From Vicinamibacterales bacterium (lineage in GTDB: Bacteria > Acidobacteriota > Vicinamibacteria > Vicinamibacterales > CAVVIG01): a stretch of 64,000 nt of DNA. The position numbers and the translations under genes were made by a program. The notes under the pieces are model-generated. The model was given only the letters and a program-made list of their open reading frames with translations, had not been told where the DNA came from and did not search any database. This document shows, piece by piece, positions 3,068-49,108 of this stretch. Every line of letters begins with the position of its first letter. Position 1 is the stretch's first letter. The stretch spans positions 202,784 through 266,783 of the forward strand of contig CBDDJX010000002.1 in assembly GCA_965229885.1 (NCBI GenBank), in the 5' to 3' direction.

Positions 3068-3148
3068 TCAGAAGAGAAAGTACCGCTGTGCGAGCGGCAG
3101 CACATCGGCCGGTCGTGCGCGCAGTTCTTCGCCGTCGGCTGTGACGAT
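3068..3148 (-). pseudogene. ureC: C-terminal relic of urease alpha subunit UreC
   Basis: Reads IVTADGEELR / PADVLPLAQRYFLF-stop across one frameshift. This is the canonical UreC C-terminus, and it lies directly upstream of ureF. Confidence 0.8.
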
Positions 3149-3149
3149 G

Positions 3150-3551: not shown

Positions 3552-3560
3552 GGCGACATG

Positions 3561-4328: not shown

Positions 4329-4381
4329 GGGACCCGCCCATTGTCACTGATTAAGATTTGTTTCCTGCAATCCCCAACGCC

Positions 4382-4980: not shown

Positions 4981-5959
4981 ACCCCGCTGCGGTCAGCAGG
5001 CCTTCAAAGTCGCGCGGGAGCGTCGCCTCGAGCCGCACCCGACGGTGCGTAGCGGGATGCGCAAAGGCGAGACGCCACGCGTGGAGCGCCTGGCGCGGAA
5101 ATGCCCGCAGCGCGGCCCTGAGCGTGGGATCGACCATCGTCGTCCAGCGCGGACCGCCATAGACGGCGTCGCCGACGGGCGGCCAGTTGCGGGCCGCCAG
5201 GTGGACGCGGATCTGATGCGTCCGGCCCGTCACGAGGCGGCAGCGCAGGAGCGAGAGGCCCGCGTGCGGCGCTGCCACGGAGGCGAGTCTTTCGAATCGC
5301 GTGAGACTCGGCGCCCCGACGCTTGACGACGCGATCATTCGCCGACGATCCATGGGGTCGTGGCCGAGCCGTAGGGCGATCTCGCCGCGGACCATCTTGA
5401 CGCGTCCATACACCACCACCAGGTAATCCTTTTCGGTGTGGCTCGACGCCATCGTTCGCTGCAGCGCGGCATGAACGGCCGCGGTCTTGGCCACCACGAG
5501 AATTCCCGATGTGCCCTTGTCGAGGCGGCCGACGAGCGACGGCCGCTGCCCTGGCGGCCACCCGCGCGCATGCCACAGGAGCGCGTTCAGCACCGTGCCG
5601 GCCACGTTCTTGTACGAAGGGTGCACGACCACGCCCGCGGGCTTGTCAAGCGCGAGCAGCTGGTCGTCTTCGTACAGAATATTGAGCGGCACATCTTCGG
5701 CGGCCATCGCGACGCGACGTGGGGCTGCAGGAAGCGTGACCGTCACGACATCGCCGACGACGGCGCGTGCGGCGGTGCGGTGGACGGGCGCGCCATTCAC
5801 CGTGACCTGCCCGTTTTCGATCCACGCCTGGACCTGCGTGCGAGTCGCCGCGTCGACGTCAGTGAGGTGCCGCCGGAGCACCAGATCGAGGCGAACGCCC
5901 GCGTCGCCCCGGTCGGCGGTCAGGATGCGGTCAAGGTGGGTGTTGGGAATTCGTCCCAT
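4964..5959 (-). CDS. rluD: RluA-family 23S rRNA pseudouridine synthase (RluD-like, with S4 domain)
   Basis: S4-like N-terminus; LDKPAG, GRLDKGTSG, TGRTHQIRVH and RQALHA motifs. Confidence 0.88.
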   Translation of the reverse strand: MGRIPNTHLDRILTADRGDAGVRLDLVLRRHLTDVDAATRTQVQAWIENGQVTVNGAPVHRTAARAVVGDVVTVTLPAAPRRVAMAAEDVPLNILYEDDQLLALDKPAGVVVHPSYKNVAGTVLNALLWHARGWPPGQRPSLVGRLDKGTSGILVVAKTAAVHAALQRTMASSHTEKDYLVVVYGRVKMVRGEIALRLGHDPMDRRRMIASSSVGAPSLTRFERLASVAAPHAGLSLLRCRLVTGRTHQIRVHLAARNWPPVGDAVYGGPRWTTMVDPTLRAALRAFPRQALHAWRLAFAHPATHRRVRLEATLPRDFEGLLTAAGFIGPP

Positions 5960-6005
5960 GGCAGCGACAGAGTACAGTAATTGCGTGAGTGCTCTTTCGG
6001 ATTCC

Positions 6006-7631
6006 ATGCCGCCCGACCTTCAGGATCCGGGCGACGTCACACCGCCTTCAGCGCTCGCCGAGCTCGAACGGGAAGTGTCGAGACGGCGCACATTCGCGAT
6101 CATTTCCCATCCCGATGCGGGCAAGACGACGCTGACGGAGAAGCTGCTGCTGTACGCCGGCGCCATTGAGCTGGCCGGCGCCGTCCGGGGGCGCAAGGAC
6201 CGCCGGCACGCGACGTCCGACTGGATGGAGCTCGAGCAGCAGCGCGGCATCTCGATCACCTCCGCCGCGCTCGAATTCGAGCTGCAGGGACGTCGGATGT
6301 CGCTGCTCGACACCCCCGGCCACAAGGATTTCAGCGAAGACACCTATCGCGCCCTCATTGCCGCTGACAGCGTCGTGATGGTCATTGACGCGGCGAATGG
6401 CGTCGAGGACCAGACACGGAAGCTGTTCGAAGTCTGCCGAAGGCACCGGCTACCCATTCTCACGTTCATCAACAAGTTCGACCGCCCGTCGCGCGATCCG
6501 CTGGAACTGATGGACGATCTCGAGCGCACGCTCGGGATCGCCGCTGCGCCGGTCAACTGGCCGATCGGCAGCGCCGAACGGTTCCGCGGGGTGTACGACA
6601 TCGAGCGCCAGACGCTGCTTCGATACGAGCGCGAGGCGCAGGGGCAGTATCGGGCGCCGGTCGACATGTCGTCTCTCGACGATCCGGAAGCGCGGGACAT
6701 GATCGGGGCGGACGAGTACGCGAATTTCCGCGAGTCGCTGGATGTCATCGCCGCCGCCGGCACCGGGTTCGACGTGGCGGCATATCTGGCGGGCCGGCAG
6801 ACGCCCGTCTTCTTCGGCAGCGCCCTGACGAACTTCGGCCTCGAGCCGTTCCTGCAGGCGCTCGTCGAGATCGCGCCGCCGCCGCAGCCGCGCCCGAGCG
6901 ATTCGGGGACGGTCAGCCCAACCGATGACCGCTTCAGCGGCTTCGTGTTCAAAATCCAGGCGAACATGGATCCGCGCCATCGCGATCGTGTCGCGTTCGT
7001 CCGCGTCTGCTCCGGCCGGTTCGCAAAAGACATGGTGGTGTCCAACAGCCGGGTGGGGAAGTCGCTCCGCGCGTCGCGCGCCTACCGGTTCTTCGGCCGC
7101 GATCGCGAGACGATCAGCGTGGCCTATCCGGGCGACATCATCGGTCTCGTCAACCCGGGACATTTCGCGATCGGCGACACGCTCCATGCCGGCGAACCGT
7201 TGCGGTTTCTCGATCTGCCGCGCTTTCCAGCGGAGCACTTCGGGCGTGTGCGTCTGAAGGACATCCGGTACAAGCAGTTTGACGATGGCCTCAAGCAGCT
7301 CGAAGAGGAAGGGCTGATGCAGGTGTTCTACGTCGCCGCGGGCCGCCGCGAGCCGATCGTCGGTGTCGTCGGTGCGCTGCAGTTCGCCGTGATTGTCAGC
7401 CGTCTTCGGACAGAGTACGGCGTGGTGGTTGAAATCGAGACCGCGGGGTACGCAGTTGCGCGATGGCTCGGAAGCCCTGCGGGGCCGACGCCTTCACTGG
7501 GAGCGCACAGCGCGGTGGCCATGGACCGGCAGGAACGGCGCGTGATCCTGTTCGGCTCCGAATGGGAGCTGCAGTACTTCGCGCGCCATCATCCTGACGT
7601 ACCGCTGCTGGCCGAGTCGCCGGTCGCCTGA
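6006..7631 (+). CDS. prfC: Peptide chain release factor 3
   Basis: RRTFAIISHPDAGKTTLTEK, DTPGHKDFSEDTYR and INKFDR motifs; start at MPPDLQ. Confidence 0.96.
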   Translation: MPPDLQDPGDVTPPSALAELEREVSRRRTFAIISHPDAGKTTLTEKLLLYAGAIELAGAVRGRKDRRHATSDWMELEQQRGISITSAALEFELQGRRMSLLDTPGHKDFSEDTYRALIAADSVVMVIDAANGVEDQTRKLFEVCRRHRLPILTFINKFDRPSRDPLELMDDLERTLGIAAAPVNWPIGSAERFRGVYDIERQTLLRYEREAQGQYRAPVDMSSLDDPEARDMIGADEYANFRESLDVIAAAGTGFDVAAYLAGRQTPVFFGSALTNFGLEPFLQALVEIAPPPQPRPSDSGTVSPTDDRFSGFVFKIQANMDPRHRDRVAFVRVCSGRFAKDMVVSNSRVGKSLRASRAYRFFGRDRETISVAYPGDIIGLVNPGHFAIGDTLHAGEPLRFLDLPRFPAEHFGRVRLKDIRYKQFDDGLKQLEEEGLMQVFYVAAGRREPIVGVVGALQFAVIVSRLRTEYGVVVEIETAGYAVARWLGSPAGPTPSLGAHSAVAMDRQERRVILFGSEWELQYFARHHPDVPLLAESPVA

Positions 7632-7796
7632 ACCGTCCTCGGTCTCCGGGGTGCGGCAGAGCACGATCTTCCGAAAGCTCGATCCGACATCCAGGCAATC
7701 GAAGGCGTGCAGCCCGAGCTTCGCGGCGAGGTTGCACATACCTCGATGTGGCTCGTCGATCGCCGCCTGTAGCTCGTGTTGGTCCATGCTAGGACC

Positions 7797-10147
7797 CTAA
7801 GTGTTCGCCTTCGCCGCCAGCACGCGTTCGTGCGCGACGAGGGCTAACAACACGATGATGGCCGCGAACGGCAACATCGACAGCAGATCGGCGTGGGCGC
7901 CGCGGAACAGCGGGTTGTTGGCCGCCGACCACCCGGCGATCCGATCGGTGAAGTCGGCCATGACACCCGCCATGAACGCGATCACGATCCCCGCGATCGC
8001 GCCGCCAGCGATATATCCCGATGCGAGCAGCACGCCGGGGCTCCGGTCGGCTTCCGCGGTCAGCTGCTCGCGCGTGAGCTGCGCGCCGCGATGCTTGCGA
8101 CGCACGTGGCGATCGCCAAGCCATCGAACCAGACCGCCGATGAAGATCGGACTCGACGCCGAGAGTGGCAGGTAGACGCCAACGGCAAAGGCGAGCGACG
8201 GGATGCCGGACATTTCCAGGATGAGGGCAATCATCACGCCGAGGAACACAAGGCCCCACGGCAGTTGACGGTTGAGAATGCCCTTGATGATGTAGGACAT
8301 CAGCGTGGCTTTCGGGGCGTCGAACTTCGCGACGTCACGGAGCCCGTCCGGCGTGCGCCGATGCACGCCGTTGATCCCCGGATCGACGAGGAACACGGGC
8401 ACGCCGCCCGTGTCAACGAGGTACTTGCCGGCCGGCCCGTCGTCGGCCGTTGGCTTGTGCCAGACGAGATACCGCTGGCCGTCGTGCAGCTCCGAATCGG
8501 TCAGATCCGCCGGGTTGGTACGGAGCGTTGCGGAAAAAATCTCGATGTCCCGCAGCACTGTTCCGTTCGTCCCCGCTACCGGCGCCTTGCTGACCCGCGG
8601 CACGTAGACCGTCGCCGCGCTGTTCAACGTCAACAGAATCGGACCGAGGAGCAGGGCAGAACTCAGCGCACCCACCACGATCGCGATCTGCTGGCTGCGC
8701 GGCGTCGCCCCGACCAGGAATCCGGTTTTCAGATCCTGCGACGTCGTGCCGCCGTTCGACGAGGCGATGCAGACGACGGCGCCGACCGAGAGCGCCGTCA
8801 CGTAATAGGCCGACCCCGTCCAGCCGACGAGGAGGAACGCCAGGCATGTGACGAGGAGCGTCGCGACGGTCATGCCCGAGATCGGGTTCGAGGACGAACC
8901 AATTTCGCCGGTGAGCCGGGACGAGACGGTCACGAACAGGAATCCGAGCACGACGATCAGCGTGGCGCCGAGGACGTTCATGTGAAGCGGCCGGGCCAGC
9001 ACGATGGCGACGCCGAGGCCGAGGCTGCCGAAGAGCACCACCTTCATCGACAAGTCCCGATCCGTGCGCAGCAGCGACGGTCGCGCACCGGCGCCGCCGC
9101 GGAAATCCTTCAACCCTCCCTGCAGGCCGCCCCAGATCGTCGGTAACGCCCGAAGCAGGCTGATGATTCCGCCGGCGGCCACCGCGCCGGCGCCGATGTA
9201 CAGCACGTAGGCATTGCGGATGTCATCGGGCGACATCGCCCCGATCGGGATCGTCCCCGGCGCAAGAGGGGCCGTGGAGCCCGATCCGAAGAACGTGATC
9301 GCCGGGATGAGGACCAGATACGCGAGCACGCCGCCCGCACACATCACCGACCCGATGTGCGGTCCAATGATGTAGCCGACGCCGAGGAGCTCGGGAGAAA
9401 TCTCGGCGGCGATCGACGCGCCGGCAAACGGGGGGGCGAAAATCTTCTCCGGGATGTCCTTCCAGCCCTTGAACGCCACGTTCAGGGCCTTGTAGGCCAG
9501 GCCGATGCCGAAGCCCGCAAAGTATCGTGGTCGCGCTCGTGCCGGCCGGGCCCTGCCTGGCGTGTTCGCGCTGAGCCGTTTCTGACGCCGCCAGCCGCGA
9601 TTCGCGCGACGCGCCGGCCTTCAGCACTTCCGCACACGCGGTGCCTTCCGGGTACTTCAGGATGCCGTGCTGCTGCACGATCAGCGCCCGCCGCAGCGGG
9701 ATCATCATGAGGATGCCGAGCAGCCCGCCCACCAGCAGGACGCGCGTCACCTCCAGATCGAAACCGAGAATCATGATCGCCGGCATCGTCACGCCCAGGC
9801 CAAAGGCGATCGATTCGCCGGCCGAGCCGGCAGTCTGCACGATGTTGTTCTCGAGGATCGTCGCGTCGCGCATCCCGAACTTCGACAGGAGCCGGAAGAT
9901 AGTGATGGAAATCACCGCCACCGGAATGGACGCGCTGACCGTCACACCGACCTTCAGCGCCAGGTACAGCGACGACGCGCCGAAGATCATGCCGAGGTAT
10001 GGTGCCGACGACAAGCGGCAGCGCCGAGAGCTCGGGGATCTGTGTGTGAGCGGGAATGTAGGGTTCGAACACCGGTGCGTCGGGAAGGGCATCCGGCCTC
10101 GCCGCCGGCGTCGCGATGATCGTCTCCTGCGCGAGGGTCTCTGTCAT
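7797..10147 (-). pseudogene. OPT-family oligopeptide transporter, two frameshifts
   Basis: [49 protein letters not shown] and QDLKTGFLVGATP spread over three frames (breaks near 10010 and 9530). Confidence 0.88.
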
Positions 10148-10287
10148 CTGTTCGCTACGATACTTCAGGAGCCGGACGTGCACAGAACGATTTGGAGGAT
10201 CTCGCAAAGCCGGACGACGATTCGCCGCGGGTGGCCGTGAGGATGCGGGCACTCGCTCATGCGTGTTCCATCGTACAGTGGTGGGCG

Positions 10288-10653
10288 ATGAACGATCGCG
10301 AGAGGGAGAGGCTCGTCTACTCGACCGACGTCGGGCGGGTGTGCCCGGGTTGCGGCTGGCCGGCGCGGGATTGCACGTGCAGCACCCGCGCTGTCACCGA
10401 GGCGTGTCCCTCCGCGCCGGGCAAGATCGTGGCGAAGCTGCGCATGGAGAAGAAGGGGCGTAGCGGGAAGACCGTCACCGTGGTGGCCGGCCTTCCGCGC
10501 AATGCCGCCTTTCTCAGGAAGCTCTCTCAGGAGCTCAAGCGCGCGTGCGGCACCGGCGGTGCCGTGTCGGAAGACACGATCGAGCTCCAGGGAGATCTGC
10601 GCAAGCGCGTCCGCGCGTACCTCCTGAAGAAGGCATTCGTCGTGAAGGGCTGA
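10288..10653 (+). CDS. yciH: SUI1-family translation initiation factor (YciH)
   Basis: LVYSTD, KKGRSGKTVTVV, CGTGGAV and IELQGD motifs; N-terminal CPGC...CTC. Confidence 0.9.
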   Translation: MNDRERERLVYSTDVGRVCPGCGWPARDCTCSTRAVTEACPSAPGKIVAKLRMEKKGRSGKTVTVVAGLPRNAAFLRKLSQELKRACGTGGAVSEDTIELQGDLRKRVRAYLLKKAFVVKG

Positions 10654-10879
10654 TCGGGCGGCGAGCTGGGCCATGGCGCGCCCGGACGGGAAGCGAGCTG
10701 GGAAGGCCCTCGGTGAAAGAGCCGCGAGCGGTGGCGCACATCCGCGATTTCAAGACGCCGATCGGTCATGCCGAAGCCGATAACCGACCGGCCCATACGG
10801 AACAGGGCGATCGTGGACGGGGACGAGACGTCAAGAGTTGACACGGCCCGGGCTCAGGTCACCGTGGTGTCCAGCCGGA

Positions 10880-10987
10880 TCAGCGGCGAGAAACGGCCCA
10901 GCCTTCCCACTTCAGGCCAGCCACCCGCCCGAACTCCTGCACGTTGGACGTGACGAGTGTGGCGCCGCGACGTCGCGCCTGACCGGC
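10880..10987 (-). pseudogene. C-terminal relic of a PIN-domain (VapC-like) toxin
   Basis: AGQARRRGATLVTSNVQEFGRVAGLKWEGW resembles typical VapC C-termini. Confidence 0.6.
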
Positions 10988-11326
10988 GAGCCCTTCCGTC
11001 GCCAGCACGTGCGGCAGCCCGGCGAAATTGCCCTAATGCGCGACGAACGTGTCCGCGCCGAACCCCGCCGCGCGCAGACGCTCTTCCGCGCGCGGCAGCT
11101 CGATCGGATCGACGTCAAGGCCGATCAGTCGTCCGCCAGGCTGAATGCGATCGAGAATCGCGCGGCGCATCCCTGCCGGCGTCTTGCCCGACTCGACGAT
11201 CTTCCGAACGTCGGCCTCGTACCGCTCCGGGTTCAGTTCTTTGTACTTCTCGTGGAACGCGCGCGTGTTCTTCCCTGGGTAGCGGGGCCGCCGCTTTCGC
11301 ACCGGCGGCGCGTCATCTGCGGGCAT
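10988..11326 (-). pseudogene. RsmH/MraW-like methyltransferase paralogue, deleted and truncated
   Basis: RRPRYPGKN...EKYKELNPERY...SGKTPAG N-terminus, then LIGLDVDPIELPR. An in-frame TAG precedes GNFAGL, and the SAM-binding segment is missing. Confidence 0.7.
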
Positions 11327-14248: not shown

Positions 14249-14435
14249 CTACATGAACGGATTTTCGTCCGCGCTCGGCCCGTAGATTGACGGGACCGGC
14301 ACGTCCAGCAGCCGAAGGTACACCGACAATTGCCCGCGGTGGTGATACACGTGGTTGAGCATGACCGCCCGCACGAGCGCGCCTTTGGGCATCGTCATGA
14401 GCGTCCTGCCGTCGGCCGACACCGTCCACATCCAC
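14249..14435 (-). pseudogene. DinB-family protein, C-terminal fragment
   Basis: LNHVYHHRGQLSVYLRLLDVPVPSIYGPSADE; no N-terminal part found. Confidence 0.8.
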
Positions 14436-14645
14436 GCGCGCTGGCGGTTGAGTCTTGAGGGCACCGCGACCGGCAACCGCAAACACGCCCAAGGTATCCC
14501 ACCGCGTTGTTCGCGGCGCCAAGGCGGCGCGTCAACTGCGGGATGTGTCGGTTTCTGGTGCACGACCGCGATGCGATCTCCGCGCCCGCGGTCGACCTCG
14601 CGATCACCTCGATGGGGCTGCGGGCGCCGCAGGCGAACGCCTTCT

Positions 14646-15178
14646 ATGAGCGACTGAGCTGAGCGCATCGAAGACAGTTCCGCGGCGATCTACAGTTACT
14701 TTCCATCAAAGGGCGACATCTTCTTCGCGCTGGCCGAGAGAGCGTTCGTCTCCTCCGCGACTATAGCGCCGGGTCGCTTGACGGCTTTCCAGCCATGGAG
14801 CACCTCCGGAGCGTCGTCCTGCGCCTCTATCGACTCAGCACCGAGCACCCCGAGTATTTCGCGCTGATGTTCGTGGACCGGACGGTCCCGAGGATCTGCC
14901 GTGAGTACGAGCGCTTGGCGTTGGCTTGCAAGATTCGTCAGGAGCTGATCGCAGAACTTGAACACGCTGTTAATGAAGGTGTGTTCCCAAGGACGATTTC
15001 TCCGGCCGCGGCTTTCCGGATCCCTAGCATGGGCGTCTTGGGAGTCGCCGTCATGCGCCTCTCTGGTCGTCTCATCGCCGAACCCGCGGACGCCTGCGGG
15101 TGCCACGCGCTCTGCCACGCTTTCGCTCGTGCCACGCTCAGCGCATGGCTCGCACCGCGTCTCCTGACCGTCCCATGA
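14646..15178 (+). pseudogene. TetR-family regulator, degraded
   Basis: HTH remnant SSAAIYSYFPSKGDIFFALAE, followed in another frame by a TetR C-terminal-like domain (EHPEYFALMF). Confidence 0.65.
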
Positions 15179-34433: not shown

Positions 34434-34748
34434 TTATCCTTCTTCGAGCGCCGCCCGCAACGGGAATCCGGCCTCGCGCGCCAGCGACGTCACCGTGGCG
34501 ACTTTCGTTTCGGCCACTTCCCAAGGATACACGCCCGCGACCCCGCGGCCGTTGACATGGACCTGCATCATCACCCGGTACGCCTCGGCCGGGGACTGCT
34601 CAAAGACCGTCTCGAGTACCTGGATCACGAACTCCATCGTCGTGTAGTCGTCGTTGAGCAGAACGACTTTATGGAGCGTCGGGTCCTGCTTCCTGGGCTT
34701 GACCCGTTCCCGGACCGCGCCGTCGGTTCCGCGCTGCTCGTCGGCCAC
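34434..34748 (-). CDS. clpS: Clp protease adaptor ClpS
   Basis: HKVVLLNDDYTTMEFVIQVL, MMQVHVNG and E.AETK motifs; directly upstream of clpA. Confidence 0.95.
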   Translation of the reverse strand: MADEQRGTDGAVRERVKPRKQDPTLHKVVLLNDDYTTMEFVIQVLETVFEQSPAEAYRVMMQVHVNGRGVAGVYPWEVAETKVATVTSLAREAGFPLRAALEEG

Positions 34749-34775
34749 CAGGGTAGAGTAACCTCAATACGGCGG

Positions 34776-36462
34776 TTACGCCGCCAGCTCCTCCAGCGCG
34801 CGGACCCCGGAGCGCATGGAGAGCAGCCAGACCGCCACGCTCGACACGGTGGCGACCAGGAAACAACCAATCATCAGCAGCTGTTGCGCGGGCGCGGGCG
34901 GACGACCCTGGAGCCGTCGGAAAACATACAACGACGACGGCCACCCGATGAGCGCGATCATGACGATGACGAACAGCACCGCCTGAATCATGAAGGCGCC
35001 GCCGCCGAAGGAACCGGAGGCCTCGGCCGGATCGGCGCCGAGGCGTGGATAGCGGGCGCCCATCCCGGCGGCCAGTCCAACCAGGGCAAAACTCATCATC
35101 ACGACGGCAACTGCCGCCATCCCCTTCAAGAACGGATCGACGCCGAGAAACTCGTTGGCGGCAACCGTCACCAGTTCGGTCAACACCAGCACGGGAACGA
35201 GACCCGTCCAGAATTTCGACCAGAGAAAGTCGCGCATCGAGACGGGCGCCGTCCGGATGATCCAGAAGGAATGCCCTTCGACCGACACGGACGGGAAGAC
35301 GAACCGGACGGCGACCGTGGCCATCACGAGCCCCGCCATCCCAAGGTTCACGAGCGCATACAGGTTCTTGACGAAGCCGCTCATGTACGGAATGCGTTGC
35401 AGGTCGAGGACGCGGAAGTTGTACAGATACACGACCACGAGCGCGCACAGCAACAGAAGCTGCGACCATTGACTCACGTCGCGAAGGAACATCTTCAGGT
35501 CCTTGATCAGCAGCTGCTTTCTGACCGTCGTCAGCGGCAGCACATGCACGAGACGGTCGAGCGTCCGCAACTGCGTGAACCGCGCCTTGGGCGCCTCCTG
35601 CGCTCGGCTGAATCCGCTGAAGTACCATCGCTAACTCGCCGCTCGAACCACCACGATCGACCCGAGCGCCGTCGTCCAGAGCGCGCCGGCATGGAGCAGG
35701 TCGAACCCGCCGGTGAGGCTCGCGAAGAGGGTTTCGCCGGCCCAGAATGAGGGCAGCATCGGCGTGATGGGCGATTGCAGCGTGGCGAAGAAATCGGTGA
35801 TGTCCGGCAGCGATTCAACCTTCATCAGCTGTTCAGGCCGGATGAAGCGCAGGAGGATCACCAGGCTTGCCGCGAAGAGCAGTCCCATCAGCATGAGGAT
35901 GTCGCGGGCGCGGCGCGCGGGGAACGTGTTGACCAAACAGGAGCGTGATGATTGTCCCCGCCGCGACGGGAATGATGGTGAACGGCACCAGTGCGACAAT
36001 GGACGTCGCGTAGAACGCCAGCCCTGCGCAGCGCGCGTGCCCGACGCCCATCAGCACCGGCACGAGAAAGACGACGACCATCCACGAAGCCTGGCCGACG
36101 GTCCGCAGAAAGCGGGCATGAAACACGCGGCGTGTCGCGATTGGAGCGGCCAGGAGCAGGCGCAGGTCCTCGGAAAGAAAGAACGTCGACAGTGAGGTGA
36201 CGATCCCGCTGAACGCCAGGAACGATAAGAAGGTCAGGAAGAGCCATGACAAGCCGAGCCGGAGCAGGTAGTCGCCGAGGTCCTCGTAGCCTGCCAGTTG
36301 CGCAGTAAGCCAGAACGAACCCCGGTAAAGCAGCGCACATACCAGCAATCCAAGCCCGCCAAACACCGCGGCGTGCAGGCGCTCGCCGCGGTCGCCGCGC
36401 TGCGCGCGGTTACGGGACGACAGCACGTGCGGCAGCAGCAGGTACGGAAAGGCGTGGGCCAT
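34776..36462 (-). pseudogene. Putative ABC exporter permease, frameshift plus nonsense codon
   Basis: Multi-TM segments (TSLSTFFLSEDL, KDLKMFLRD.SQWSQ). Frameshift near 35940 and an in-frame TAG at 35631-35633. Confidence 0.75.
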
Positions 36463-37238
36463 CAGATGACTTCGTCGATCTCCTGGAGGGCGCTGCCGCC
36501 CGTCAGCTTCAGGAAGACGGTCGTCAGCTGCTCCGCGCTTCCCTCGGCGTTTTCCTCGGCTTGTCCGCCGCCCATCTGCCGCAGCTCGTCGACCGTCCCG
36601 TTCGCGATGATGCGGCCTTTCAAGATGATGCTGACGCGGTCGCACATCTCCTCGGCCACTTCCAGCGTGTGCGTGCTCATGAGAATTGCCACGCCGCGCT
36701 CACTCATTCGGCGGAAGACGTCCTTGATCAGGCGCGCGCCGCGGGGATCGAGACCCAACATCGGTTCGTCCACGACGACCGCGTGCGGGCGATGGAGGAA
36801 GGCGGCACACATCACGAGGCGCTGCTTCATGCCGTGAGAAAAGCTTTCGACCAGCTCGTGTCCCCAGCGTCCGAGCTCAAAGAGATCAAGCATCTCGCGC
36901 ACGCGCCCGTCAATCTCGTGTCCGTCCAGCTCGTACAGACCGCCGTGAAAGCGCAGGAACTCGCCGGCCGTCAGCTTTTCGTAGATGAACGGACGGTTCG
37001 GAATGAAGCCAAGCGACGCCTTTGCTCTTTCTGGATCGGTCGCCAGGTCGTGACCATTCACGAGAATGCGCCCGGAGGTTGGTTTGAGCAGGCCGGCGAT
37101 CATTCTGAGCGTCGTCGTCTTGCCGGCGCCGTTCGGACCGAGAAAGCCATGGATCTCGCCGGGAGCGACGGCGAGGCTGACGCCATCGACAGCCGTGAAC
37201 GCGCCGTACTGCTTGACGAGATCGTACAGGCCGATCAT
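36462..37238 (-). CDS. ABC transporter ATP-binding protein
   Basis: GPNGAGKTT, FSHGMKQRL, VVDEPMLGLDP and MSTH motifs. Confidence 0.93.
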   Translation of the reverse strand: MIGLYDLVKQYGAFTAVDGVSLAVAPGEIHGFLGPNGAGKTTTLRMIAGLLKPTSGRILVNGHDLATDPERAKASLGFIPNRPFIYEKLTAGEFLRFHGGLYELDGHEIDGRVREMLDLFELGRWGHELVESFSHGMKQRLVMCAAFLHRPHAVVVDEPMLGLDPRGARLIKDVFRRMSERGVAILMSTHTLEVAEEMCDRVSIILKGRIIANGTVDELRQMGGGQAEENAEGSAEQLTTVFLKLTGGSALQEIDEVI

Positions 37239-38858
37239 GGTTGTGACCGGCACGCGCAACACGAAGCGGGTCGCCGGATGGGAATCGACAGAGCGCCCAG
37301 GTCGACAGGCGGCGCCTCGCCGGCGAGGATCGGCGTGGCGCCAGGCGCGAGCTCCAGATCGAGCACAGTCATCTTCAGCCGTCCGATCAGCGGGAGAATC
37401 GCCGTTTGTTTCTCGAGGCCGCCGCGCGCCAGGCGCACGTGGGTCGCGTCGGCGGGGAACTGGTTGAACGCTGGATCGACGGGCAGCCACAAACCTCGGT
37501 CGGATCCTTCGTCGACATAGACTTCCGGCCAGGCGTGGTAGTAGAACGCACCGCGGACGAACACCAGACCGACGACGATCCGCGCCGGGATGCCCAATGC
37601 CCGCGCCATCGCAACATAGAGCGCCGTGTGCTCGTTGCAGTCGCCGACTTTCGTGCGGAGTACTTCACGCGCCGACGGAATACTCACGGTCGGCTTCTTG
37701 TCGAGGAGGTTGTTGACGTACCTCGTGAGCCGCTCGGCGCGCGCGCGGACACCGCTGGAAGCCACGACGCCGCGGACGGCGATCTCGGCTTCGGCGAGGA
37801 TCTCAGGCGCGTCGCTTTCGATGAGCGCTTCTGGCGCGAGGTACTGCGACGCAGTGGCGTCGGCACGCTCGGCGCCGAGCTCCCGCGGATCGTGGAGCTC
37901 GATGATGTCGCCGTCGATCGTCTGGCCGGCGCCCTGAAGGTCTGGGCTCGACAGATCGGCGCCTTCCAGTCGAATGCGAAGACGTCGCACGTCGCACGTC
38001 GCGCGGCTCGTCGATGCGCTGCGTCATGATCGGCACGACGGCCGCCGCGTCGAGCAGATCGGCTCGTACGCCTCCAGGGACGGCGGTGTTCCGTGCGCGG
38101 TCTGCCGACTCGCGCACGGTCATCAGCCCCATCGGGCTTTCTTCCCGCACGACATCGCCAGTGTCGGTGATCCAGGCGGTTGTCCGCAGGCCGCTGAACG
38201 CCATCTCCACGCGGAACGCGGGGATCGGCGTGCCGGCCGAGCGGACGAACTCGCGCTTGCCAACCTCGATGGTGACCGGCGCGTTGTGAAGCGTGGCGGG
38301 ATCGAACAGCGTCCAGTGGTGCCTGGCGCCGGCCACAAGCCCACCGTTCGCCAGACGGCGCGACAGGTTCAGCGACAGCGCGGGCGGTTCATCGAGCTCG
38401 CGCACTTCGGTCCGCGTGCCGGACGACGTCGTCACGTCGAGCGTCAGCCGGCGGCCGTCCACTCGGCCTCGTACAGTGGTCGGCCCGGTACCAGGATCCA
38501 GCGAGAACTCGAACGAGCGTAGCGCAAAGCTCGCGTCGACGATCGCGGTCGTATGGATCGTCGCGGCCGTGATCGCGCCGAGCAACGACATCTGCAGCCG
38601 CCCGTCTTCGTTGAGCTCGAATCCTTCGTCTTTCGGAAGCGTCTGGCTGACCGTGAAGCCAATCTTTTCGCCCCGGTAGTACACGCCGCGCCATACGGCC
38701 GCCGACCCGTAGCGTGCGAGGTCCGTCGCCAGGTTGGCAGAAGACGCCTGCAGGTACGAGCGATTCACCAGGGCGGCCATCGTTGCGATCCAGGCCAGTA
38801 CGACGAGAATGGAGATGGGACGAGTAATGGTGCGGGGCAACGGCCGGAGCAGGCGCAT
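37235..38858 (-). pseudogene. Transglutaminase-like domain protein, frameshifted by a 7-bp tandem duplication
   Basis: GDCNEHT, YHAWPEVY and VDP catalytic-triad motifs; N-terminal anchor; break at 37983-37996. Confidence 0.85.
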
Positions 38859-38907
38859 TTTTCATGTGTATCGGTGTTTCGACCTGCGCGCCGTAGGGTT
38901 CGCGTGC

Positions 38908-39337
38908 CTATTCGATCGTCGGCCCACGCAGCGCCGGGCAGAACGTTTCGTACGTGCTGGCGATCAGGAAGAATAGTTGCTGCCGGCTTTCGACCCGCTG
39001 CCCGCGACGCCGCCTGGAAACGGCATGATCACGCCGGGCACCGAGGCGATCGCCGCCCATCAGCCCCTCGCGACAGCCAAACCGGCGGTTGATCACGAAC
39101 TCGCCCACGAGGATGGGGATGACCCACACGGGTCGGCCGTGACGCACGTCGCGACACGGGTAGCCGTTGCCGAAGTCGGCGATCTTGCGACCCAGCTTGT
39201 AGTAGGGATCGGTGTCGAGCCGGCTGAAGCACGCCGCGGTCGGGCCCCGCCACGCAGTCGCACATAATCGTAGAGGACGCGTTGCCCGTGGCCGCGTGGA
39301 CCGCATGATCGAGCCAGGTGCGATCGCGCGCCGTCAT
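38908..39337 (-). pseudogene. fhcD: Formylmethanofuran:H4MPT formyltransferase (Ftr/FhcD) relic
   Basis: TARDRTWLDHAVHAATGNASSTIMCDC.AG, GEF.INRRFG.REGLMGG, VIMPFPGGVAGSGSKAGS and ASTY..FCP.LR in shifted frames. Confidence 0.75.
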
Positions 39338-39972
39338 CGCTGCTCGCGAGCATCCCGCCCGCGGCCTTGATAAACCGTTTTCTCGGTGACGACCTTGTCC
39401 ATGTAGACGTCGTGAGGGCTGACGACCAGCTCGGGAAAGAGCTGACATTCGTAGGCCAGCGCGACGAGTGGCGCCTCAGGACGCACGCGATCGAGGAGGC
39501 GATCGTAGTAGCCCTGGCCGTTCCCCATCCGCGCGCCGTCGCGCGTAAAGCCCACGCCTGTCACGATGACCAGATCCAGTTCGCGCGGGTCGACTTCCTT
39601 GTCGCGGTCGCCCCATCGCTCTTTCGGCGGCTCAAGGATCGACCACTTGCCGACGACGAGCTCGTCCATGCTCGTGAGATGCCACAGACCAAGCTTGTTC
39701 GAGCCTCGGTCGTCCACGGTGCAGTACGGGACGACGATCTTCTTGGCGCCCTTCAGCGCATCACCCAGCTGATGCCGCATCCGCACTTCAGAGCGCACGT
39801 CGAGGTACCACATTGCCGTGTGCGCGGCGGCGTACTCGGGCAGGGCGATGAAGCGCTCGATGATCGCTTTGGACACGTCGTCCTTGTTGTCCTGCGCATT
39901 GCGGGCGTCGTAGCCCTGCCGGCGCAGCTTCGCCTTGCGGTCTCCAAGCGTCTCAGCGGTCTCGTTGGCCAT
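39334..39972 (-). CDS. 5-formyltetrahydrofolate cyclo-ligase
   Basis: YLDVRSEV, VVPYC, ILEP, DLVIVTGVGF...GARMGNGQGYYDRLL and HDVYMDKVVTE motifs. Confidence 0.92.
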   Translation of the reverse strand: MANETAETLGDRKAKLRRQGYDARNAQDNKDDVSKAIIERFIALPEYAAAHTAMWYLDVRSEVRMRHQLGDALKGAKKIVVPYCTVDDRGSNKLGLWHLTSMDELVVGKWSILEPPKERWGDRDKEVDPRELDLVIVTGVGFTRDGARMGNGQGYYDRLLDRVRPEAPLVALAYECQLFPELVVSPHDVYMDKVVTEKTVYQGRGRDAREQR

Positions 39973-40015
39973 CTTGCCTATCCTAACCTTGCCGCTTTGC
40001 CGTTGTGAACGATCG

Positions 40016-41326
40016 TCAAGCGGCAGCGATCACGACATCCATCACGTTCGTGCCTGTCGGCCCCGTCTTGATCAACGCGTCGACCGATGCGAGAGCTGCG
40101 TGCGAGTCATGACGCTGAAGATCGCTGTCTGGATCCCGACCCGCCGCCGCGATGCGTTCCCACGTCGTGCCATCCACGATCGCGCCGGCGGCATCGGTCG
40201 GACCATCGCGGCCGTCGGTTCCCGCCGCGAGAAGCGCCACCGTGGGTATTCCTCGCAGGACTCGAGCTGCCGCCAGGGCCAACTCCTGGGATCGCCCGCC
40301 TGATCCCGTGCCCTGCTCGGCCATCGTCACCGTCGTCTCACCGCCGAGAATGAGGCAGCGGGACAAATGACCCTCGTGGCGGCCGGCCAGAAGTCTTTCC
40401 ACGATACGCGCGCCCGCGATTGCCGCCTCTCCAACGATCGGCCGGTCGACAATCTCGGGAACGAGACCGGCGGCGCTTGCGCGCCGGCCTGCCGCTTCGA
40501 GCGCGAGACGATTGGTCGCAATCAGCGTGCTCGCGACCCGGTCGAAAGCAGGGTCGCCTGGCTTCGGCGTCTCCGGAACGCGGCCCCGATCGACGTCATG
40601 CAGATACTGACGAAGTGAAGGACCCAGGCGGTCCCAGAGGGCTGCGCGAACGAGCACGTCGCGAACATCTCGCGCCGTGGACGGGTCGGGGACCGACGGC
40701 CCTGAGCCGATCGCGGCGAGATCGTCGCCGATGACGTCCGACATGATGTAGCAACAGAGCCGCGCATGCGCGAGGCTCCGCGCGAGGCGGCCACCGCCCC
40801 AGCGCGTAAAGCGTTTGCGCACACGGTTCATCTCCCTGATGTCGAGGCCCGACCAGAGCAGCTGGCCGTAAAGCGCCTTGAGCTCGTGAGGCGCGATGCC
40901 CGGCTGCGGCGCGCCGATGAGACTTGTCGTACCGCCTGAGAGCAGCAGCCACACGGTGTCGCCAGGCGGAATCTTCTTCACCAGACGATCGAGCGCGTCG
41001 GCAGCCGCGAGCGATCCCGCGCCGGGCTCTGGATGATCGCCCACGATCACCGCGACGGACGGATGGGGCGCGGACGTGTTGACGGTCGCGACGATGAGCC
41101 CGCCGGCAGGGGCGCAGCCCCTGGGGTCCTGAAGGCCACCTGCCGCGAGGACGCGTACTGCCGCTTCCGCCATCGGCTGTGCGGCTTTGCCGAGGGCAAT
41201 CAGCCAGACGCGGTCGTCGCGCGGTTCGTTCTGCAGCGCGCGCATGAGCACGGGGCCGGGGGCAACGGCGGCGACCGCCGCCTGGTAGATCTCGATGAGC
41301 AGCGTTTTCGCGTCGGCGCGATTCAT
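40016..41326 (-). CDS. gck: Glycerate 2-kinase (DUF4147/MOFRL family)
   Basis: ALGKAA, HPEPG..SL.A, LSGGTTSL, SDVIGDDL..IGSGP, GGETTV, GGRSQELAL, GTDGRDGPT and TGPTGTNVMD motifs. Confidence 0.9.
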   Translation of the reverse strand: MNRADAKTLLIEIYQAAVAAVAPGPVLMRALQNEPRDDRVWLIALGKAAQPMAEAAVRVLAAGGLQDPRGCAPAGGLIVATVNTSAPHPSVAVIVGDHPEPGAGSLAAADALDRLVKKIPPGDTVWLLLSGGTTSLIGAPQPGIAPHELKALYGQLLWSGLDIREMNRVRKRFTRWGGGRLARSLAHARLCCYIMSDVIGDDLAAIGSGPSVPDPSTARDVRDVLVRAALWDRLGPSLRQYLHDVDRGRVPETPKPGDPAFDRVASTLIATNRLALEAAGRRASAAGLVPEIVDRPIVGEAAIAGARIVERLLAGRHEGHLSRCLILGGETTVTMAEQGTGSGGRSQELALAAARVLRGIPTVALLAAGTDGRDGPTDAAGAIVDGTTWERIAAAGRDPDSDLQRHDSHAALASVDALIKTGPTGTNVMDVVIAAA

Positions 41327-41426
41327 AGTAATATTCCAGTCCTCCCCCTCGGTGCCAAGGGGCTTGCCTGAGCGGCGGCAACCGCGCCCGGCCAGCACAC
41401 TCTAGCCAAGCGAAGCGAGAACTGTC

Positions 41427-42583
41427 ATGCCAGGCCGTAGTTTTCGGTTTGTTCCGGGACCGACGAATGTTCCCGATCGCGTCCTGCGGGCGATGCACGT
41501 CGCGATGGAGGATCATCGTTCATCGAGTTTTCCTTCGTTGACGAAGCCGCTGTTTAACGATACTCAAGAAGATCTTCAAGACCGAATCGGGCCAGTGCTT
41601 TATCTTTCCCGGCTCCGGCACCGGCGGCTGGGAAGCGGCCCTCACGAATACGCTGTCGCCTGGCGATAAGGCGTTGTCTGCCCGCTACGGGCAGTTCAGT
41701 CATCTCTGGACCGATATGGCCGTGCGGCTCGGGCTCGACGTGCAGCTGCTCGAGGCCGAGTGGGGCGAGGCCGCGCCGGTCGAGCGGATTGCCGAAGCGC
41801 TGGCGGCCGATACCGCACACCAGATTCGCGCGGTCATGATAGTGCACAACGAGACCGCCACGGGCGTGAGGAGCGATGTCGCGGCTGTTCGCAACGCGCT
41901 TGATGCCGAGACGCATCCCGCGCTGCTGTTCGTCGACGGCGTCAGCTCGATCGGTGCGATCGATTTCCGGATGGACGAATGGAAGGTCGATTGCGCCGTC
42001 ACTGGTACGCAGAAGGCGCTCGCTCATGCTGCCGCCGGGCCTAGGGATCGTCTGCGTCAGCCCGAAGGCGCTCGCGGCCGGCGACCAGACCAGGCTAGCA
42101 CGCGTGTTCTTCGACTTCACGGATCAGATCAACCAGAACGCGATCGGCTACTTTCCCTGTACGCCCGCCGTGCCGATGCTGTACGGGTTGCGTGAGTCGG
42201 TCGCGATGCTGCTCGAGGAGGGGCTCGCCGCCGTCTTCGCTAGGTACCATCGTCTGGCCGAAGGCGTTCGCGCGGCGGTCAGGGCCTGGGGCCTCGAGCT
42301 GTGCGCGGGCGCGCCGAAGTCGTACTCGGATACCGTCAGCGCCATCATGGTGCCGCCGCAGGTCAAGGGCCAGGACGTCATCGACATCGCCTACCACCGG
42401 TACAACCTGTCCCTTGGGGCCGGCTTGTCAAAAATGGCCGGGAAGCTGTTCCGTATCGGCCATATGGGCGACCTGAACGAGCTGATGCTGCTTGGCGCGC
42501 TCGCCGGCGCCGCCGAAGAGTACTGGCGACAATCGACCGCCGCCGCACAGTCCGTCGCGGTGGGAGCCGGCACGAAGGTATGA
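41427..42583 (+). pseudogene. sgaA: Serine-glyoxylate aminotransferase (class V), several frameshifts
   Basis: PGPTNVPDRV, HNETATGV.SD, VDGVSS, GTQKAL (PLP Lys), FRIGHMGDLNE; frame breaks near 41565, 41630 and 42030. Confidence 0.85.
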
Positions 42584-43557
42584 CGAGCGCCAGACGAGCG
42601 AGCGTCCCGGTGGTCGTCGTCACCAGGAAGATTCCCACTGCCGTCGAACAGGAAATCGCCGCCCTGTTCGAGGCGCGGCTCAACCCGAACGACACACCGA
42701 TGACCGTTGACGCGCTCAAGGAGGCGATGCGAACCTCCGACGTCGTGTTGTGCTCGGTGGCCGACAAGATGACGGCCGACATCATCAACACGCCAGGCCG
42801 CACAGTGAAGCTGCTGGCGAATTTCGGTGTGGGGTTCAACAACATCGATATCGCGGCGGCGAAAGCCGCCGGCGTGCTCGTCTCCAATACACCGGACGTC
42901 CTGACGGAAGCGACGGCGGATCTCGCGATGACGCTGCTGCTCATGACCGCGCGCCGCGCGGGCGAAGGGGAGCGCCTAGTGCGAGGGGGGCGGTGGACCG
43001 GATGGCGGCCCACGCACATGATGGGGACGATGGTGACCGGCAAGACGATCGGGCTCGTCGGTTTCGGCCGGATCGCCAGGGCGGTGACGAAGAAGGCCCA
43101 CGACGGGTTCGGGTTGCACGTGATCTTCCACGATCCGCTCGTGCCGAACGGATCGCTCGGCGCGGCGCCGCGCGCCAGCCTCGAGGAGCTGCTCGGAGAG
43201 GCGGACTTCGTCTCGTTGCATTGCCCGGCCCTCCCCGAGACGCGTCACCTGATGAACGCGCAGCGGCTCGGCCAGATGAAGAAATCGGGCATCCTGATCA
43301 ACACGGCCCGCGGCGACGTGGTGGACGAAGCGGCGCTCGTGGCTGCGCTGCAGAAGGGGCAGATTGCCGCGGCGGGGCTCGATGTCTTCGAACGTGAGCC
43401 GAACGTCACGCCCGAGCTGTTGAAGATGGAGAACGTCGTGCTACTGCCGCACTTGGGAAGCGCGACGCTCGAGACCCGCGAGGCGATGGGCAGAAGGGCG
43501 CTGGAGAACATCCAGCGCTTTGTCTCCGGCGCCTCGCTGCGCGATCGCGTCGTGTAG
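42580..43557 (+). CDS. D-glycerate dehydrogenase / hydroxypyruvate reductase-like 2-hydroxyacid dehydrogenase
   Basis: FGVGFNNID, NTPDVLT, GLVGFGRIA, NTARGDVVDE, DVFEREP and LPHLGS motifs; ATGA overlap with sga. Confidence 0.88.
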   Translation: MTSARRASVPVVVVTRKIPTAVEQEIAALFEARLNPNDTPMTVDALKEAMRTSDVVLCSVADKMTADIINTPGRTVKLLANFGVGFNNIDIAAAKAAGVLVSNTPDVLTEATADLAMTLLLMTARRAGEGERLVRGGRWTGWRPTHMMGTMVTGKTIGLVGFGRIARAVTKKAHDGFGLHVIFHDPLVPNGSLGAAPRASLEELLGEADFVSLHCPALPETRHLMNAQRLGQMKKSGILINTARGDVVDEAALVAALQKGQIAAAGLDVFEREPNVTPELLKMENVVLLPHLGSATLETREAMGRRALENIQRFVSGASLRDRVV

Positions 43558-47440: not shown

Positions 47441-49108
47441 TTGAAGGATCTGACGGACACCGACCGCGCGTTCCAGTACCACGACGGCACCAAACACCAT
47501 TTCAATCGCTTCGCTCCCTCGCTCGGCTATCTCGACTGGGCGTCGCAGCCGCGCCCGTTCCGGTCGTTTGACGGCGCGCCGGTCTGTCATTTGTATCCCG
47601 GGCCGAACGTGCCGGGGCCTTCGACCGAGCTGCCGCGCACCACGTACGACCAGTTATTTGGCGGCTTGCCGATCCCTCCGGCCCCGATCACGGCGGCCAC
47701 CATCGGATACTTTCTTCGTTATTCGCTGGGACTCTCGGCCTGGAAAGTCTTCAAGGGTTCACGCTGGTCGCTGCGCGTCAATCCGTCGAGCGGGAACCTG
47801 CATCCCACCGAGGCGTACATCGCAACGGGCCCGTTCGGGGTCCCCAGCGCGGCCGCCGCGCCGGGGACCCCGCCGACGGATTTCGGAGAGACGCCGGGCG
47901 TCTGGCATTACGCGCCCGATCGTCACGTGCTGGAGCGACGGTCGGTCTTCGATCGCCAGGCCTGGGATCGGGCAGGCATCGGCGTCGCGACCGACGGGTT
48001 CATCGTCGCGCTGACGTCGATTCACTGGCGCGAATCGTGGAAATACGGCGAGCGCGCGTTCCGGTACTGCCAGCACGATCTTGGACATGCCATTGCTGCA
48101 CTGGCTGTATCAGCGGCGATGTGTGGATGGCGACTGACGATGCTGCCCGGGTGGTCGCAGCGCGCGGTGGGGACGCTCATCGGCATCGATCGCGATGAGG
48201 ATTACGTCGAGGCCGAGCGCGAAGAGCCGGCCTGCGCCCTGCTCGTCACGCGCGGGGTGGTTCCCGATCTGCCACCGATTGGGTTGGTTCCCGACCTGTG
48301 GTTCGGCCGGGCCAGTCAGCTGAGCGAAGACCATGTCACGTGGGCCTTCATCGACGACGTGGCCCGGGCCACGGAAGATTCTGGCCGCACGGTCACCGCC
48401 GATTGCGCGTGGTCGGCGGGCGCTGCGGTTGATGGTGATCGCGGACACGACGCGCGCGCGCTTGTCGTGCAGCGGCGCAGCGCGGTGGCGCTCGATGGGG
48501 CTTCCTGCGCCGATCGCGGACAGTTCCTGCGCATGCTCTCGCGCGTGATGCCCGGTTCCGGCGCACCGTGGGACGCGGCCTGGTGGACTCCGCGCATTCA
48601 TCTCGCCTTGTTCGTCCATCGCGTGGAGGGCGTGGCCCCGGGCCTCTACGTGCTCGCCCGGGCGGCGTCGGCTGTGCCCCGGCTCAAGGCGGCGTTCAGC
48701 CGTGAGTTCACCTGGACACAGGTCGCCGACGGTGTTCCGCTGTGGCTGTTACACGCGGGTGATTATCGGTCTCGCTCGCAACGTGTCAGTTGCGACCAGA
48801 ACATCGCGGCCGACGGATTCTTCAGCCTCGGGATGATCGCGGACTTCGAAGGCAGCCTCGATGAGCACGGGCCGTCGTTCTATCGGCACCTGTTCTGGGA
48901 ATCGGGCATCGTGGGCCAGATGTTGTACCTCGAGGCGGAAGCCGCTGGGGCGCGCGCCACCGGCATCGGCTGCTTCTACGACGACGCGGTTCACGACCTG
49001 CTCGGGCTCAGAGGGCACGCGTTTCAAAGCCTGTACCACTTCACGGTCGGCATGCCCGTCGAGGACGCCCGGCTCACGACGGAACCGGGATATCCATGGG
49101 AAGGGTGA
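47441..49108 (+). CDS. SagB/ThcOx-type tandem nitroreductase-domain protein
   Basis: YH..TKH, LRVNPSSGNLHPTEAY, WKYGERAFRYCQHD.GH, QRRSAV and ESGIVGQMLYLEAEA motifs. Confidence 0.88.
   Translation: MKDLTDTDRAFQYHDGTKHHFNRFAPSLGYLDWASQPRPFRSFDGAPVCHLYPGPNVPGPSTELPRTTYDQLFGGLPIPPAPITAATIGYFLRYSLGLSAWKVFKGSRWSLRVNPSSGNLHPTEAYIATGPFGVPSAAAAPGTPPTDFGETPGVWHYAPDRHVLERRSVFDRQAWDRAGIGVATDGFIVALTSIHWRESWKYGERAFRYCQHDLGHAIAALAVSAAMCGWRLTMLPGWSQRAVGTLIGIDRDEDYVEAEREEPACALLVTRGVVPDLPPIGLVPDLWFGRASQLSEDHVTWAFIDDVARATEDSGRTVTADCAWSAGAAVDGDRGHDARALVVQRRSAVALDGASCADRGQFLRMLSRVMPGSGAPWDAAWWTPRIHLALFVHRVEGVAPGLYVLARAASAVPRLKAAFSREFTWTQVADGVPLWLLHAGDYRSRSQRVSCDQNIAADGFFSLGMIADFEGSLDEHGPSFYRHLFWESGIVGQMLYLEAEAAGARATGIGCFYDDAVHDLLGLRGHAFQSLYHFTVGMPVEDARLTTEPGYPWEG

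Follow-up and report, generated by a model that had tools for sequence, protein, structure and literature searches.

Evidence for the recent decay of an MTHFS-linked Ftr paralog in a Vicinamibacteria-like bacterium

The stretch of DNA analysed here, 64,000 nt of contig CBDDJX010000002.1 (positions 202,784 to 266,783; the window in the following), contains on its minus strand the remnant of a gene of the Ftr/FhcD family, the formyltransferases of the tetrahydromethanopterin (H4MPT)/methanofuran pathway of C1 metabolism. The remnant directly follows an intact gene of the 5-formyltetrahydrofolate cyclo-ligase (MTHFS) family. Very likely it is a pseudogene that no longer functions and has decayed recently, derived from a distinct Ftr paralog, which forms the second gene of an MTHFS operon in related bacteria. 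For this MTHFS-linked clade of Ftr paralogs we coined the name Ftr2. Reading the minus strand from 39337 to 38908 in three frames, all four groups of Ftr motifs quoted in a preliminary description of the locus were found, and the Pfam profiles it had proposed for a check matched every piece. The frame of the ATG at 39337 matches positions 20-60 of the FTR profile (PF01913, E 2.6e-6), the frame of a 132-aa open reading frame (ORF) matches FTR positions 99-142 (E 1.4e-4) together with positions 59-83 of FTR_C (PF02741, E 3.5e-3), and the third frame matches FTR_C positions 39-67 (E 2.6e-9). A stitched read-through of 150 aa matched 144 database proteins with a best E of 6e-51, nearly all of them carrying PF01913 together with PF02741. 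These matches were all at most 262 aa long, i.e., fragments, due to an apparent length filter of the search at about 1.75 times the query, and full-length comparators were taken from genome loci instead; a reading of the matches as a family of short Ftr proteins was rejected for the same reason. Both lobes of the fold, the distal (FTR) and the proximal one (FTR_C), are thus matched, yet only piecewise across three frames, and no single ORF of about 300 aa covers both lobes completely. Absent from the relic are FTR profile positions 1-19 and approximately 61-98 as well as FTR_C positions approximately 1-38 and 84-149. The C-terminal “EI(I/V)I(N/D)G” region, which is conserved in the intact Ftr2 orthologs and presumably carries the putative catalytic glutamate (Glu245 of M. 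kandleri), falls within a deletion of 69 codons. The view of the locus as a relic of an Ftr/FhcD-family gene with about 140 codons left, put forward before from the bare letters, therefore holds on the grounds of the motifs in three frames, the Pfam matches and the read-through, and its boundaries are exact, with 39337 marking the original ATG and 38908-38910 the original stop codon.

The lesions were mapped by aligning the relic to the orthologs of L005, L006, L008, and L086 (L-numbers designate genome loci). Compared with the approximately 930-nt gene of L006, 66 + 161 + 65 + 1 + 207 = 500 nt are lost, and 930 minus 500 gives exactly the 430 nt that are left. The first lesion is an in-frame deletion of 66 nt (72 nt compared with L086) directly after the kept ATG, the second a frameshifting deletion of 161 nt (170 nt compared with L086) at 39246/39245, the third a frameshifting deletion of 65 nt with its junction somewhere in 39038-39057, the fourth a deletion of 1 nt at approximately 38966-38970, and the fifth an in-frame deletion of 207 nt at 38924/38923. 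The internal deletions noticed earlier are therefore confirmed as such, but their number had been set too low with “at least two”. Furthermore, several residues that are invariant among the aligned orthologs are changed in the retained pieces (CDCEAG to CDCVAG, AYFG to ADFG, GYQF to GYPC, and FGY to FGC), which points to relaxed constraint. The retained segments and the genes around them are listed in Table 1.

Table 1. Pieces of the Ftr2 pseudogene and neighboring genes in the window
Feature	Position	Strand	Remarks
Whole Ftr2 pseudogene	38908..39337	-	430 of ~930 nt left; original start and stop kept
Retained ATG start	39335..39337	-	overlaps the TGA of the MTHFS-like gene (ATGA); followed by the deletion of codons 2 to ~23, SRACVEDTYAEAFKSLYAEVLI
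Segment A, ATG frame, FTR distal lobe	39246..39334	-	TARDRTWLDHAVHAATGNASSTIMCDCVAG; ends at the 161-nt deletion
Segment B, second frame	39050..39245	-	PTAACFSRLDTDPYYKLGRKIADFGNGYPCRDVRHGRPVWVIPILVGEFVINRRFGCREGLMGG; ends at the 65-nt frameshifting deletion
Segment C, third frame, FTR_C	38966..39049	-	AAIASVPGVIMPFPGGVAGSGSKAGSNYS; ends at the 1-nt deletion
Segment D, second frame again	38924..38965	-	LIASTYETFCPALRG; ends at the 207-nt deletion, which removes the rest of the proximal lobe
Segment E, last four codons (PTIE) and original TAG stop	38908..38923	-	compare PAID* in L005 and PSIE* in L086
MTHFS-family (5-formyltetrahydrofolate cyclo-ligase) gene, intact	39334..39972	-	212 aa; PF01812 E 3.6e-37; TIGR02727 121 bits (cut-off 84.9)
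Glycerate 2-kinase gene (DUF4147/MOFRL), intact	40016..41398	-	upstream of the pair, same strand
Class-V aminotransferase gene (serine-glyoxylate type, sga), pseudogene	41406..42577	+	two frameshifts, three frames
Glyoxylate/hydroxypyruvate reductase gene (2-Hacid_dh), intact	42580..43557	+	hpr
Transglutaminase-like gene, split in two frames	37244..38861	-	frameshift near 37990; C-terminal 251-aa Transglut_core part called as gene
Putative ABC-exporter permease gene (PF16949), split in two frames	34779..36885	-	split near 35930; one ORF in L005 (14518-16677)

Frameshifts and gaps of this kind could also be errors of sequencing or assembly in a long-read metagenome contig, in which case the gene itself would be intact. 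The style of the contig name (ctg...l) suggests a long-read metagenome assembler, and several neighboring genes are frameshifted, too, which is a possible sign of indel-prone reads. However, all lesions except the 1-nt one are deletions of 65-207 nt and not slips in homopolymers, and the intact version exists as a separate allele in a relative. Moreover, the lesions are reproducible. Per-run de novo contigs (Logan) of several sequencing runs, designated by X-numbers, were compared with the window. The 212-aa product of the MTHFS-like neighbor is encoded identically on a 1.49-Mb ENA metagenome contig and in the Logan assemblies of three runs, which over the whole relic match the window with 100% identity. 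Further contigs of the organism reach 3.2 Mb, so that its genome measures at least this much. Contigs of X1, X6, X13, and X16 span the relic without any indel, those of X17, X18, and X19 have none in the parts of the relic they cover, and across window positions 34700-42700 there are 0-3 substitutions and no indels in X3, X6, X10, and X13, four runs of four studies. Runs of at least five studies, labelled with different coded organisms, contain this 8-kb sequence, and a seawater metagenome contains part of it; L085, a 99%-identical strain from another assembly, has the same deletions. Since the sequence recurs without indels in the runs of at least five studies, the lesions are no artefact of assembly or sequencing but are real and fixed in this lineage, and the probability that they are errors is negligible. 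Disabling lesions, independent reproducibility, and an intact allele in a close relative hence come together at this locus as in a genuine pseudogene. One of the studies with this 8-kb sequence also comprises a 286-Gb Hi-C run, and related loci stem from sponge genome projects; the bacterium carrying the window would be near-clonal and probably host-associated.

Some observations weigh against a non-functional relic. An ATG-started ORF of 132 aa (38908-39306) with a fairly high GC content of 0.78 at third codon positions persists and is annotated as a gene in public assemblies, the relic is kept in every strain of the lineage seen, and a metatranscriptome contig of 184 nt covers 38854-39037 at depth 3. 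There is possibly some transcription of the relic, or else carry-over of DNA. All RNA data on the relic consist of three tiny contigs at depth 2-3, which are too weak for any statement beyond “possibly transcribed”. One could therefore think of a shortened gene that still works, with the ORF coding for a mini-protein or with a product of programmed frameshifting. But about 50 of the 132 residues (the first approximately 20 and about 30 between GLMGG and LIAST) are out-of-frame former Ftr sequence, both lobes are truncated with 69 C-terminal codons gone and invariant residues substituted, and three changes of frame would be required to read all homologous pieces. Moreover, unrelated neighbors are frameshifted as well, which fits general decay. 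A functional short product is for these reasons very unlikely, and a non-functional pseudogene explains the locus far better.

The relic derives from Ftr2 and not from the canonical FhcD. Its identity is 74-80% to Ftr2 of Acidobacteriota and 65-80% across eleven Ftr2 orthologs, compared with 41% to the canonical FhcD of L009. The latter is encoded by a second Ftr gene 7 kb upstream of the pair in that genome, and its neighbors, an amidohydrolase (fhcA-like), a RimK-type ATP-grasp, a molybdopterin-oxidoreductase-like (fhcB-like), and a GXGXG (fhcC-like) gene, identify it as canonical. Compared with M. extorquens FhcD (6S6Y_D) and M. kandleri Ftr, this canonical FhcD reaches 318 and 344 bits, respectively, whereas the MTHFS-linked paralog reaches 178 and 225 bits; altogether the scores to PDB entries range from 178 to 233 bits for intact Ftr2 and from 308 to 344 bits for canonical FhcD. 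Furthermore, 74 MTHFS-linked Ftr2 genes are 67-100% identical to the Ftr2 of L006 and only 36-44% to canonical FhcD, while the best 120 canonical homologs form a tight group with 78-91% identity to the FhcD of L009 and 43-48% to Ftr2. Ftr2 also differs from canonical FhcD by a longer loop after the CDCEAG motif and by its genomic partner, which is an MTHFS-like gene and not fhcA, fhcB, or fhcC. It could be argued that both belong to the same Pfam and NCBIfam family, that intact Ftr2 even passes the TIGR03119 fhcD equivalog cut-off (312 versus 292.6 bits), and that an fhc cluster lies near the pair in relatives, so that the relic might be a canonical FhcD after all. However, the relic stands in the position of Ftr2, after the MTHFS-like gene and with the ATGA overlap, and neither fhcA, fhcB, and fhcC nor any C1 genes beyond those of Table 1 were found among the scanned ORFs of the window. 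Together with the identities, this makes a canonical FhcD extremely improbable. Therefore, the link that the preliminary description had drawn to formaldehyde oxidation of the Fhc type is not supported, as the relic represents a distinct paralog. In the search with the FhcD of L009, no megabase-contig match was present among the best 120 of about 8000 matches, all of which were at least 78% identical. A contig of about 12 kb with fhc-like genes was seen in X1, X3, X6, and X10, with 82-84% nucleotide identity to L009:900-9400, a different gene order, and several 1-nt indels. It was rejected as evidence on the window genome because its depth is 0.5 to 1.9 times that of the window genome depending on the run, and it probably belongs to another acidobacterium.

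For the search of orthologs, the protein of the MTHFS-like neighbor was compared with one genome per GTDB species, which gave 80 loci. The closest ones belong to metagenome-assembled genomes (MAGs) of Acidobacteriota/Vicinamibacteria/Vicinamibacterales with 70-81% identity of the MTHFS-like protein, and the remaining ones to Gammaproteobacteria (Thiotrichales/Thiothrix, “Ca. Porisulfidus”, Methylococcaceae, Arenicellales, and others) and Planctomycetota with 58-71%. L005 is collinear with the window over approximately 20 kb, with neighboring proteins 75-90% identical, and together with the Vicinamibacteria relatives this bears out the assignment to an Acidobacteriota-like genome made from the letters alone. 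The further claim that Ftr is atypical for this lineage has to be abandoned. An intact Ftr2 ortholog is present in all six of the closest Acidobacteriota loci, and genes of the fhc cluster or of methanofuran/H4MPT biosynthesis lie beside some of them; the search of relatives for pathway genes that had been proposed thus turned up fhc genes in L009 and MfnB and pterin-related genes in L006. In addition, H4MPT-linked formaldehyde oxidation has been reported in the Acidobacteria family UBA6911, and XoxF has been cited in genomes of Acidobacteria subdivisions 1, 5, and 6 (bioRxiv 10.1101/2021.04.09.439258), although a survey from 2016 of phyla with H4MPT/methanofuran genes did not list Acidobacteria (PMC5020050). 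As relatives carry the intact gene and the 2021 preprint already reports the H4MPT route in MAGs of this phylum, the lineage is not a surprising host and already counts among those known to carry the pathway, and its known phylogenetic range is not extended by the relic. It is plausible that the wider lineage has H4MPT/methanofuran genes, and likewise plausible that the ancestor oxidised formaldehyde via H4MPT.

The decay of ftr2 is recent. Contigs of X20, a drinking-water metagenome, are approximately 96-97% identical to the window and longer than it by exactly 207 letters at 38923/38924 and by one base at approximately 38969, and a 470-nt contig of the same run, whose identity to the window is about 96% on either side of the junction, aligns without gaps to an intact ortholog across the site of the 161-nt deletion. 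A relative with 96% identity of the MTHFS protein (ENA ERZ1305449) has an intact FTR+FTR_C gene of 308 aa with the 4-nt overlap, and according to the gene listing also its Aminotran_5 (402 aa), MOFRL, MTHFS, and Transglut_core (512 aa) genes are intact. The same holds true for an 86% relative. Comparing the retained codons with orthologs gives a ratio of nonsynonymous to synonymous changes (dN/dS) of 0.10-0.20, and pairs of intact genes give 0.13-0.21. As a sign of relaxed selection this ratio was discarded, since it is not elevated against distant orthologs, and it is read as recent inactivation and not as function: because it cannot be distinguished from that of intact-gene pairs, nearly all divergence of the relic predates the inactivation. 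Another possibility is that horizontal transfer or illegitimate recombination brought in a fragment that was broken beforehand. The pair is unusually similar across phyla (58-81% for MTHFS and at least 67% for Ftr2), which suggests horizontal spread in the past. However, the gene order flanking the relic matches that of L005, L086, and the 96% relative, all of which have the intact gene, start and stop codon have kept their original positions, and the nearest homologs come from the same class. Hence, an import in broken form is highly improbable, and inactivation within the lineage accounts for the relic.

Ftr2 is not the only decayed gene of the locus. The orthologs of the sga pseudogene are single stop-to-stop ORFs of 410 codons in L005 and 456 codons in L008, besides the intact 402-aa gene of the 96% relative, and those of the split transglutaminase-like gene comprise a 582-codon stop-to-stop ORF in L005 and called genes with 512 and 572 aa in further relatives. 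All three split genes, the ABC-exporter permease included, are single ORFs in L005 and L008. The disrupted aminotransferase, transglutaminase-like, and ABC-exporter genes have no indels in other runs relative to the window. With four genes disrupted in a stretch of 8 kb, the lineage seems to be accumulating pseudogenes. In L085 (2447-2906) the aminotransferase relic additionally appears to carry an insertion of 460 nt that resembles a miniature inverted-repeat transposable element, with terminal inverted repeats of approximately 23 nt and an 8-bp target duplication (window 41839-41846); the contig is labelled with 2x coverage, and no other copy of the element was found in the window. A change of CGA to TGA at L085:4487 (window approximately 40264) splits the glycerate kinase into 354 and 74 aa, which is either further decay or an error of the 2x contig. 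Elsewhere in the window three ORFs are covered only partly by their Pfam matches, namely 4358-4870 (Lactamase_B 34-133 of 196), 7797-9620 (OPT 211-497 of 623), and 14249-14668 (DinB 106-157 of 165), and they may be further truncated genes. Between 43872 and 49108 on the plus strand, three ORFs (368, 393, and 208 aa) without any Pfam or NCBIfam match come before a SagB-family dehydrogenase gene (TIGR03605, 555 aa, 47441-49108), and this region could be a cluster for peptide modification similar to those of ribosomally synthesized and post-translationally modified peptides. Scans of the window with Rfam and for tRNAs gave nothing bearing on the relic locus.

What the lost gene may have contributed can be approached from its conserved neighborhoods. 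For 73 of the 80 loci, the next gene after the MTHFS-like one is an intact Ftr gene of approximately 306 aa, and the pair is conserved across Acidobacteriota, Gammaproteobacteria, and Planctomycetes. The ATGA overlap of stop and start codon is present in L005, L006, L008, and L011 (GTGA in L009) and is kept in the window. In the Acidobacteriota L006 (8639-18268) the pair lies beside genes for MfnB, the 4-(hydroxymethyl)-2-furancarboxaldehyde-phosphate (4-HFC-P) synthase of methanofuran biosynthesis, and beside pterin-binding/DUF4346, pabAB-type, DUF447, and amino-acid-kinase-family genes, and the fhc genes and the pair of L009 both lie within 900-11032. In L005, L008, and L086, as in the window, the pair follows a glycerate 2-kinase gene, and in the window, L005, and L008 it also faces the aminotransferase and hydroxypyruvate/glyoxylate reductase genes. 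In the gammaproteobacterial L018 (8068-18284), Pfam matches give the order IlvD/Edd dehydratase, MTHFS, Ftr2, FolD, class-V aminotransferase, HpcH/HpaI lyase (malyl-CoA-lyase type), two subunits of a succinyl-CoA-synthetase-like ligase (malate-thiokinase type), and 2-hydroxyacid dehydrogenase, and by ORF clustering each of the conserved neighbor genes recurs around the pair in about 27-42 other Gammaproteobacteria loci. From gene content this context corresponds to a serine-cycle cluster (MTHFS-Ftr2-FolD-Sga-Mcl-MtkA-MtkB-Hpr). In Planctomycetota the pair stands alone.

Ftr enzymes formylate N5 of the pterin, and the conversion of 5-formyl-tetrahydrofolate (THF) to methenyl-THF depends on a cyclo-ligase that uses ATP, which 5-formyl-H4MPT does not need. 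As this N5 chemistry, the need of 5-formyl-THF for a cyclo-ligase, and the adjacency of folD in the serine-cycle clusters fit together, we tentatively consider that the pair might be a hitherto undescribed bridge, by which the formyl group bound to methanofuran enters the THF pool without passing through formate, an idea that we regard as possible but clearly on the doubtful side. Ftr2 would then formylate N5 of a pterin, possibly of THF rather than H4MPT, and the MTHFS-like enzyme would use ATP to cyclise the 5-formyl-pterin to 5,10-methenyl-pterin, which would feed FolD, serine hydroxymethyltransferase (SHMT), and the serine cycle. Such a scheme would replace the route via hydrolysis by Fhc, FtfL, and Fch. 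A simpler alternative is that MTHFS recycles 5-formyl-THF made by SHMT under a high flux of the serine cycle, whereas Ftr2 works with H4MPT. In the literature searched, no description of an MTHFS/Ftr2 pair or of a second fhcD was found. If the bridge exists, the lineage of the window would be a natural “knock-out” that kept the housekeeping MTHFS while ftr2 and sga fell into decay together.

Taken together, the locus represents a genuine yet ordinary case of gene decay that is well resolved. Ftr2 would no longer have been needed in this Vicinamibacteria-like lineage and would have been eroded by the usual deletion bias of bacteria, with 500 of 930 nt gone. The losses include the N-terminal strand, the central part of the distal lobe, and the greater part of the proximal lobe, which we take to be the site of the catalytic glutamate from structural work on the M. 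kandleri enzyme, while start, stop, and operon layout survive. MTHFS has a housekeeping role in the recycling of 5-formyl-THF, which may explain why the MTHFS-like gene survived. Because the neighboring sga is frameshifted as well, the locus looks like a C1-transfer/serine-cycle module that is being dismantled; this appearance derives from gene neighborhoods, and it is to its disadvantage that the role of Ftr2 is itself deduced from them. We infer that the lost capacity is better described as part of a module for C1 transfer and assimilation than as Fhc-type formaldehyde oxidation. The significance of the relic is modest, as it gives a base-by-base record of a recent loss of a C1-metabolism gene, along with sga, in a Vicinamibacteria-like bacterium, and the locus is usable as a marker for lifestyle change and genome erosion in the lineage. 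The more interesting lead is the Ftr2/MTHFS pair, which is a testable candidate for formyl transfer between the methanofuran/H4MPT and the folate systems.

Three known systems can be compared with the locus. With the Ftr/FhcD family (TIGR03119; structures 1FTR, 1M5H, 1M5S, and chain D of 6S6Y) it shares both lobes of the fold, to which the pieces of the relic align, and its intact orthologs pass the NCBIfam cut-offs and align end-to-end with the archaeal structures; in contrast to known Ftr proteins, the relic retains only about 140 of approximately 310 codons, spread over three frames. The serine-cycle clusters of methylotrophs such as Methylorubrum extorquens comprise sga, hpr, mtdA/folD, fch, mtkAB, mcl, and gck. 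Similar to these, the pair is embedded in FolD-Sga-Mcl-MtkA-MtkB-Hpr in relatives, and gck, sga, and hpr adjoin it in the window. Different from the methylotroph clusters, neither fch nor ftfL is present in the stretches read of the relatives, where the MTHFS-like and Ftr2 genes adjoin folD instead, and the window is without mtkAB, mcl, and folD nearby and has a broken sga. Finally, the patchy loss of H4MPT/methanofuran genes in Nitrosococcus, planktonic Methylophilaceae, and Burkholderia, where a relative keeps the genes and a sister lineage loses them, has been attributed to lifestyle change and genome reduction (Chistoserdova, 2016; PMC5020050). The lineage of the window resembles these cases in that its 96% relative has the intact gene while its own copy is decayed. 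However, unlike in those cases, the loss is caught midway here, with the pseudogene still readable and each lesion mapped, and the host belongs to the Acidobacteriota.

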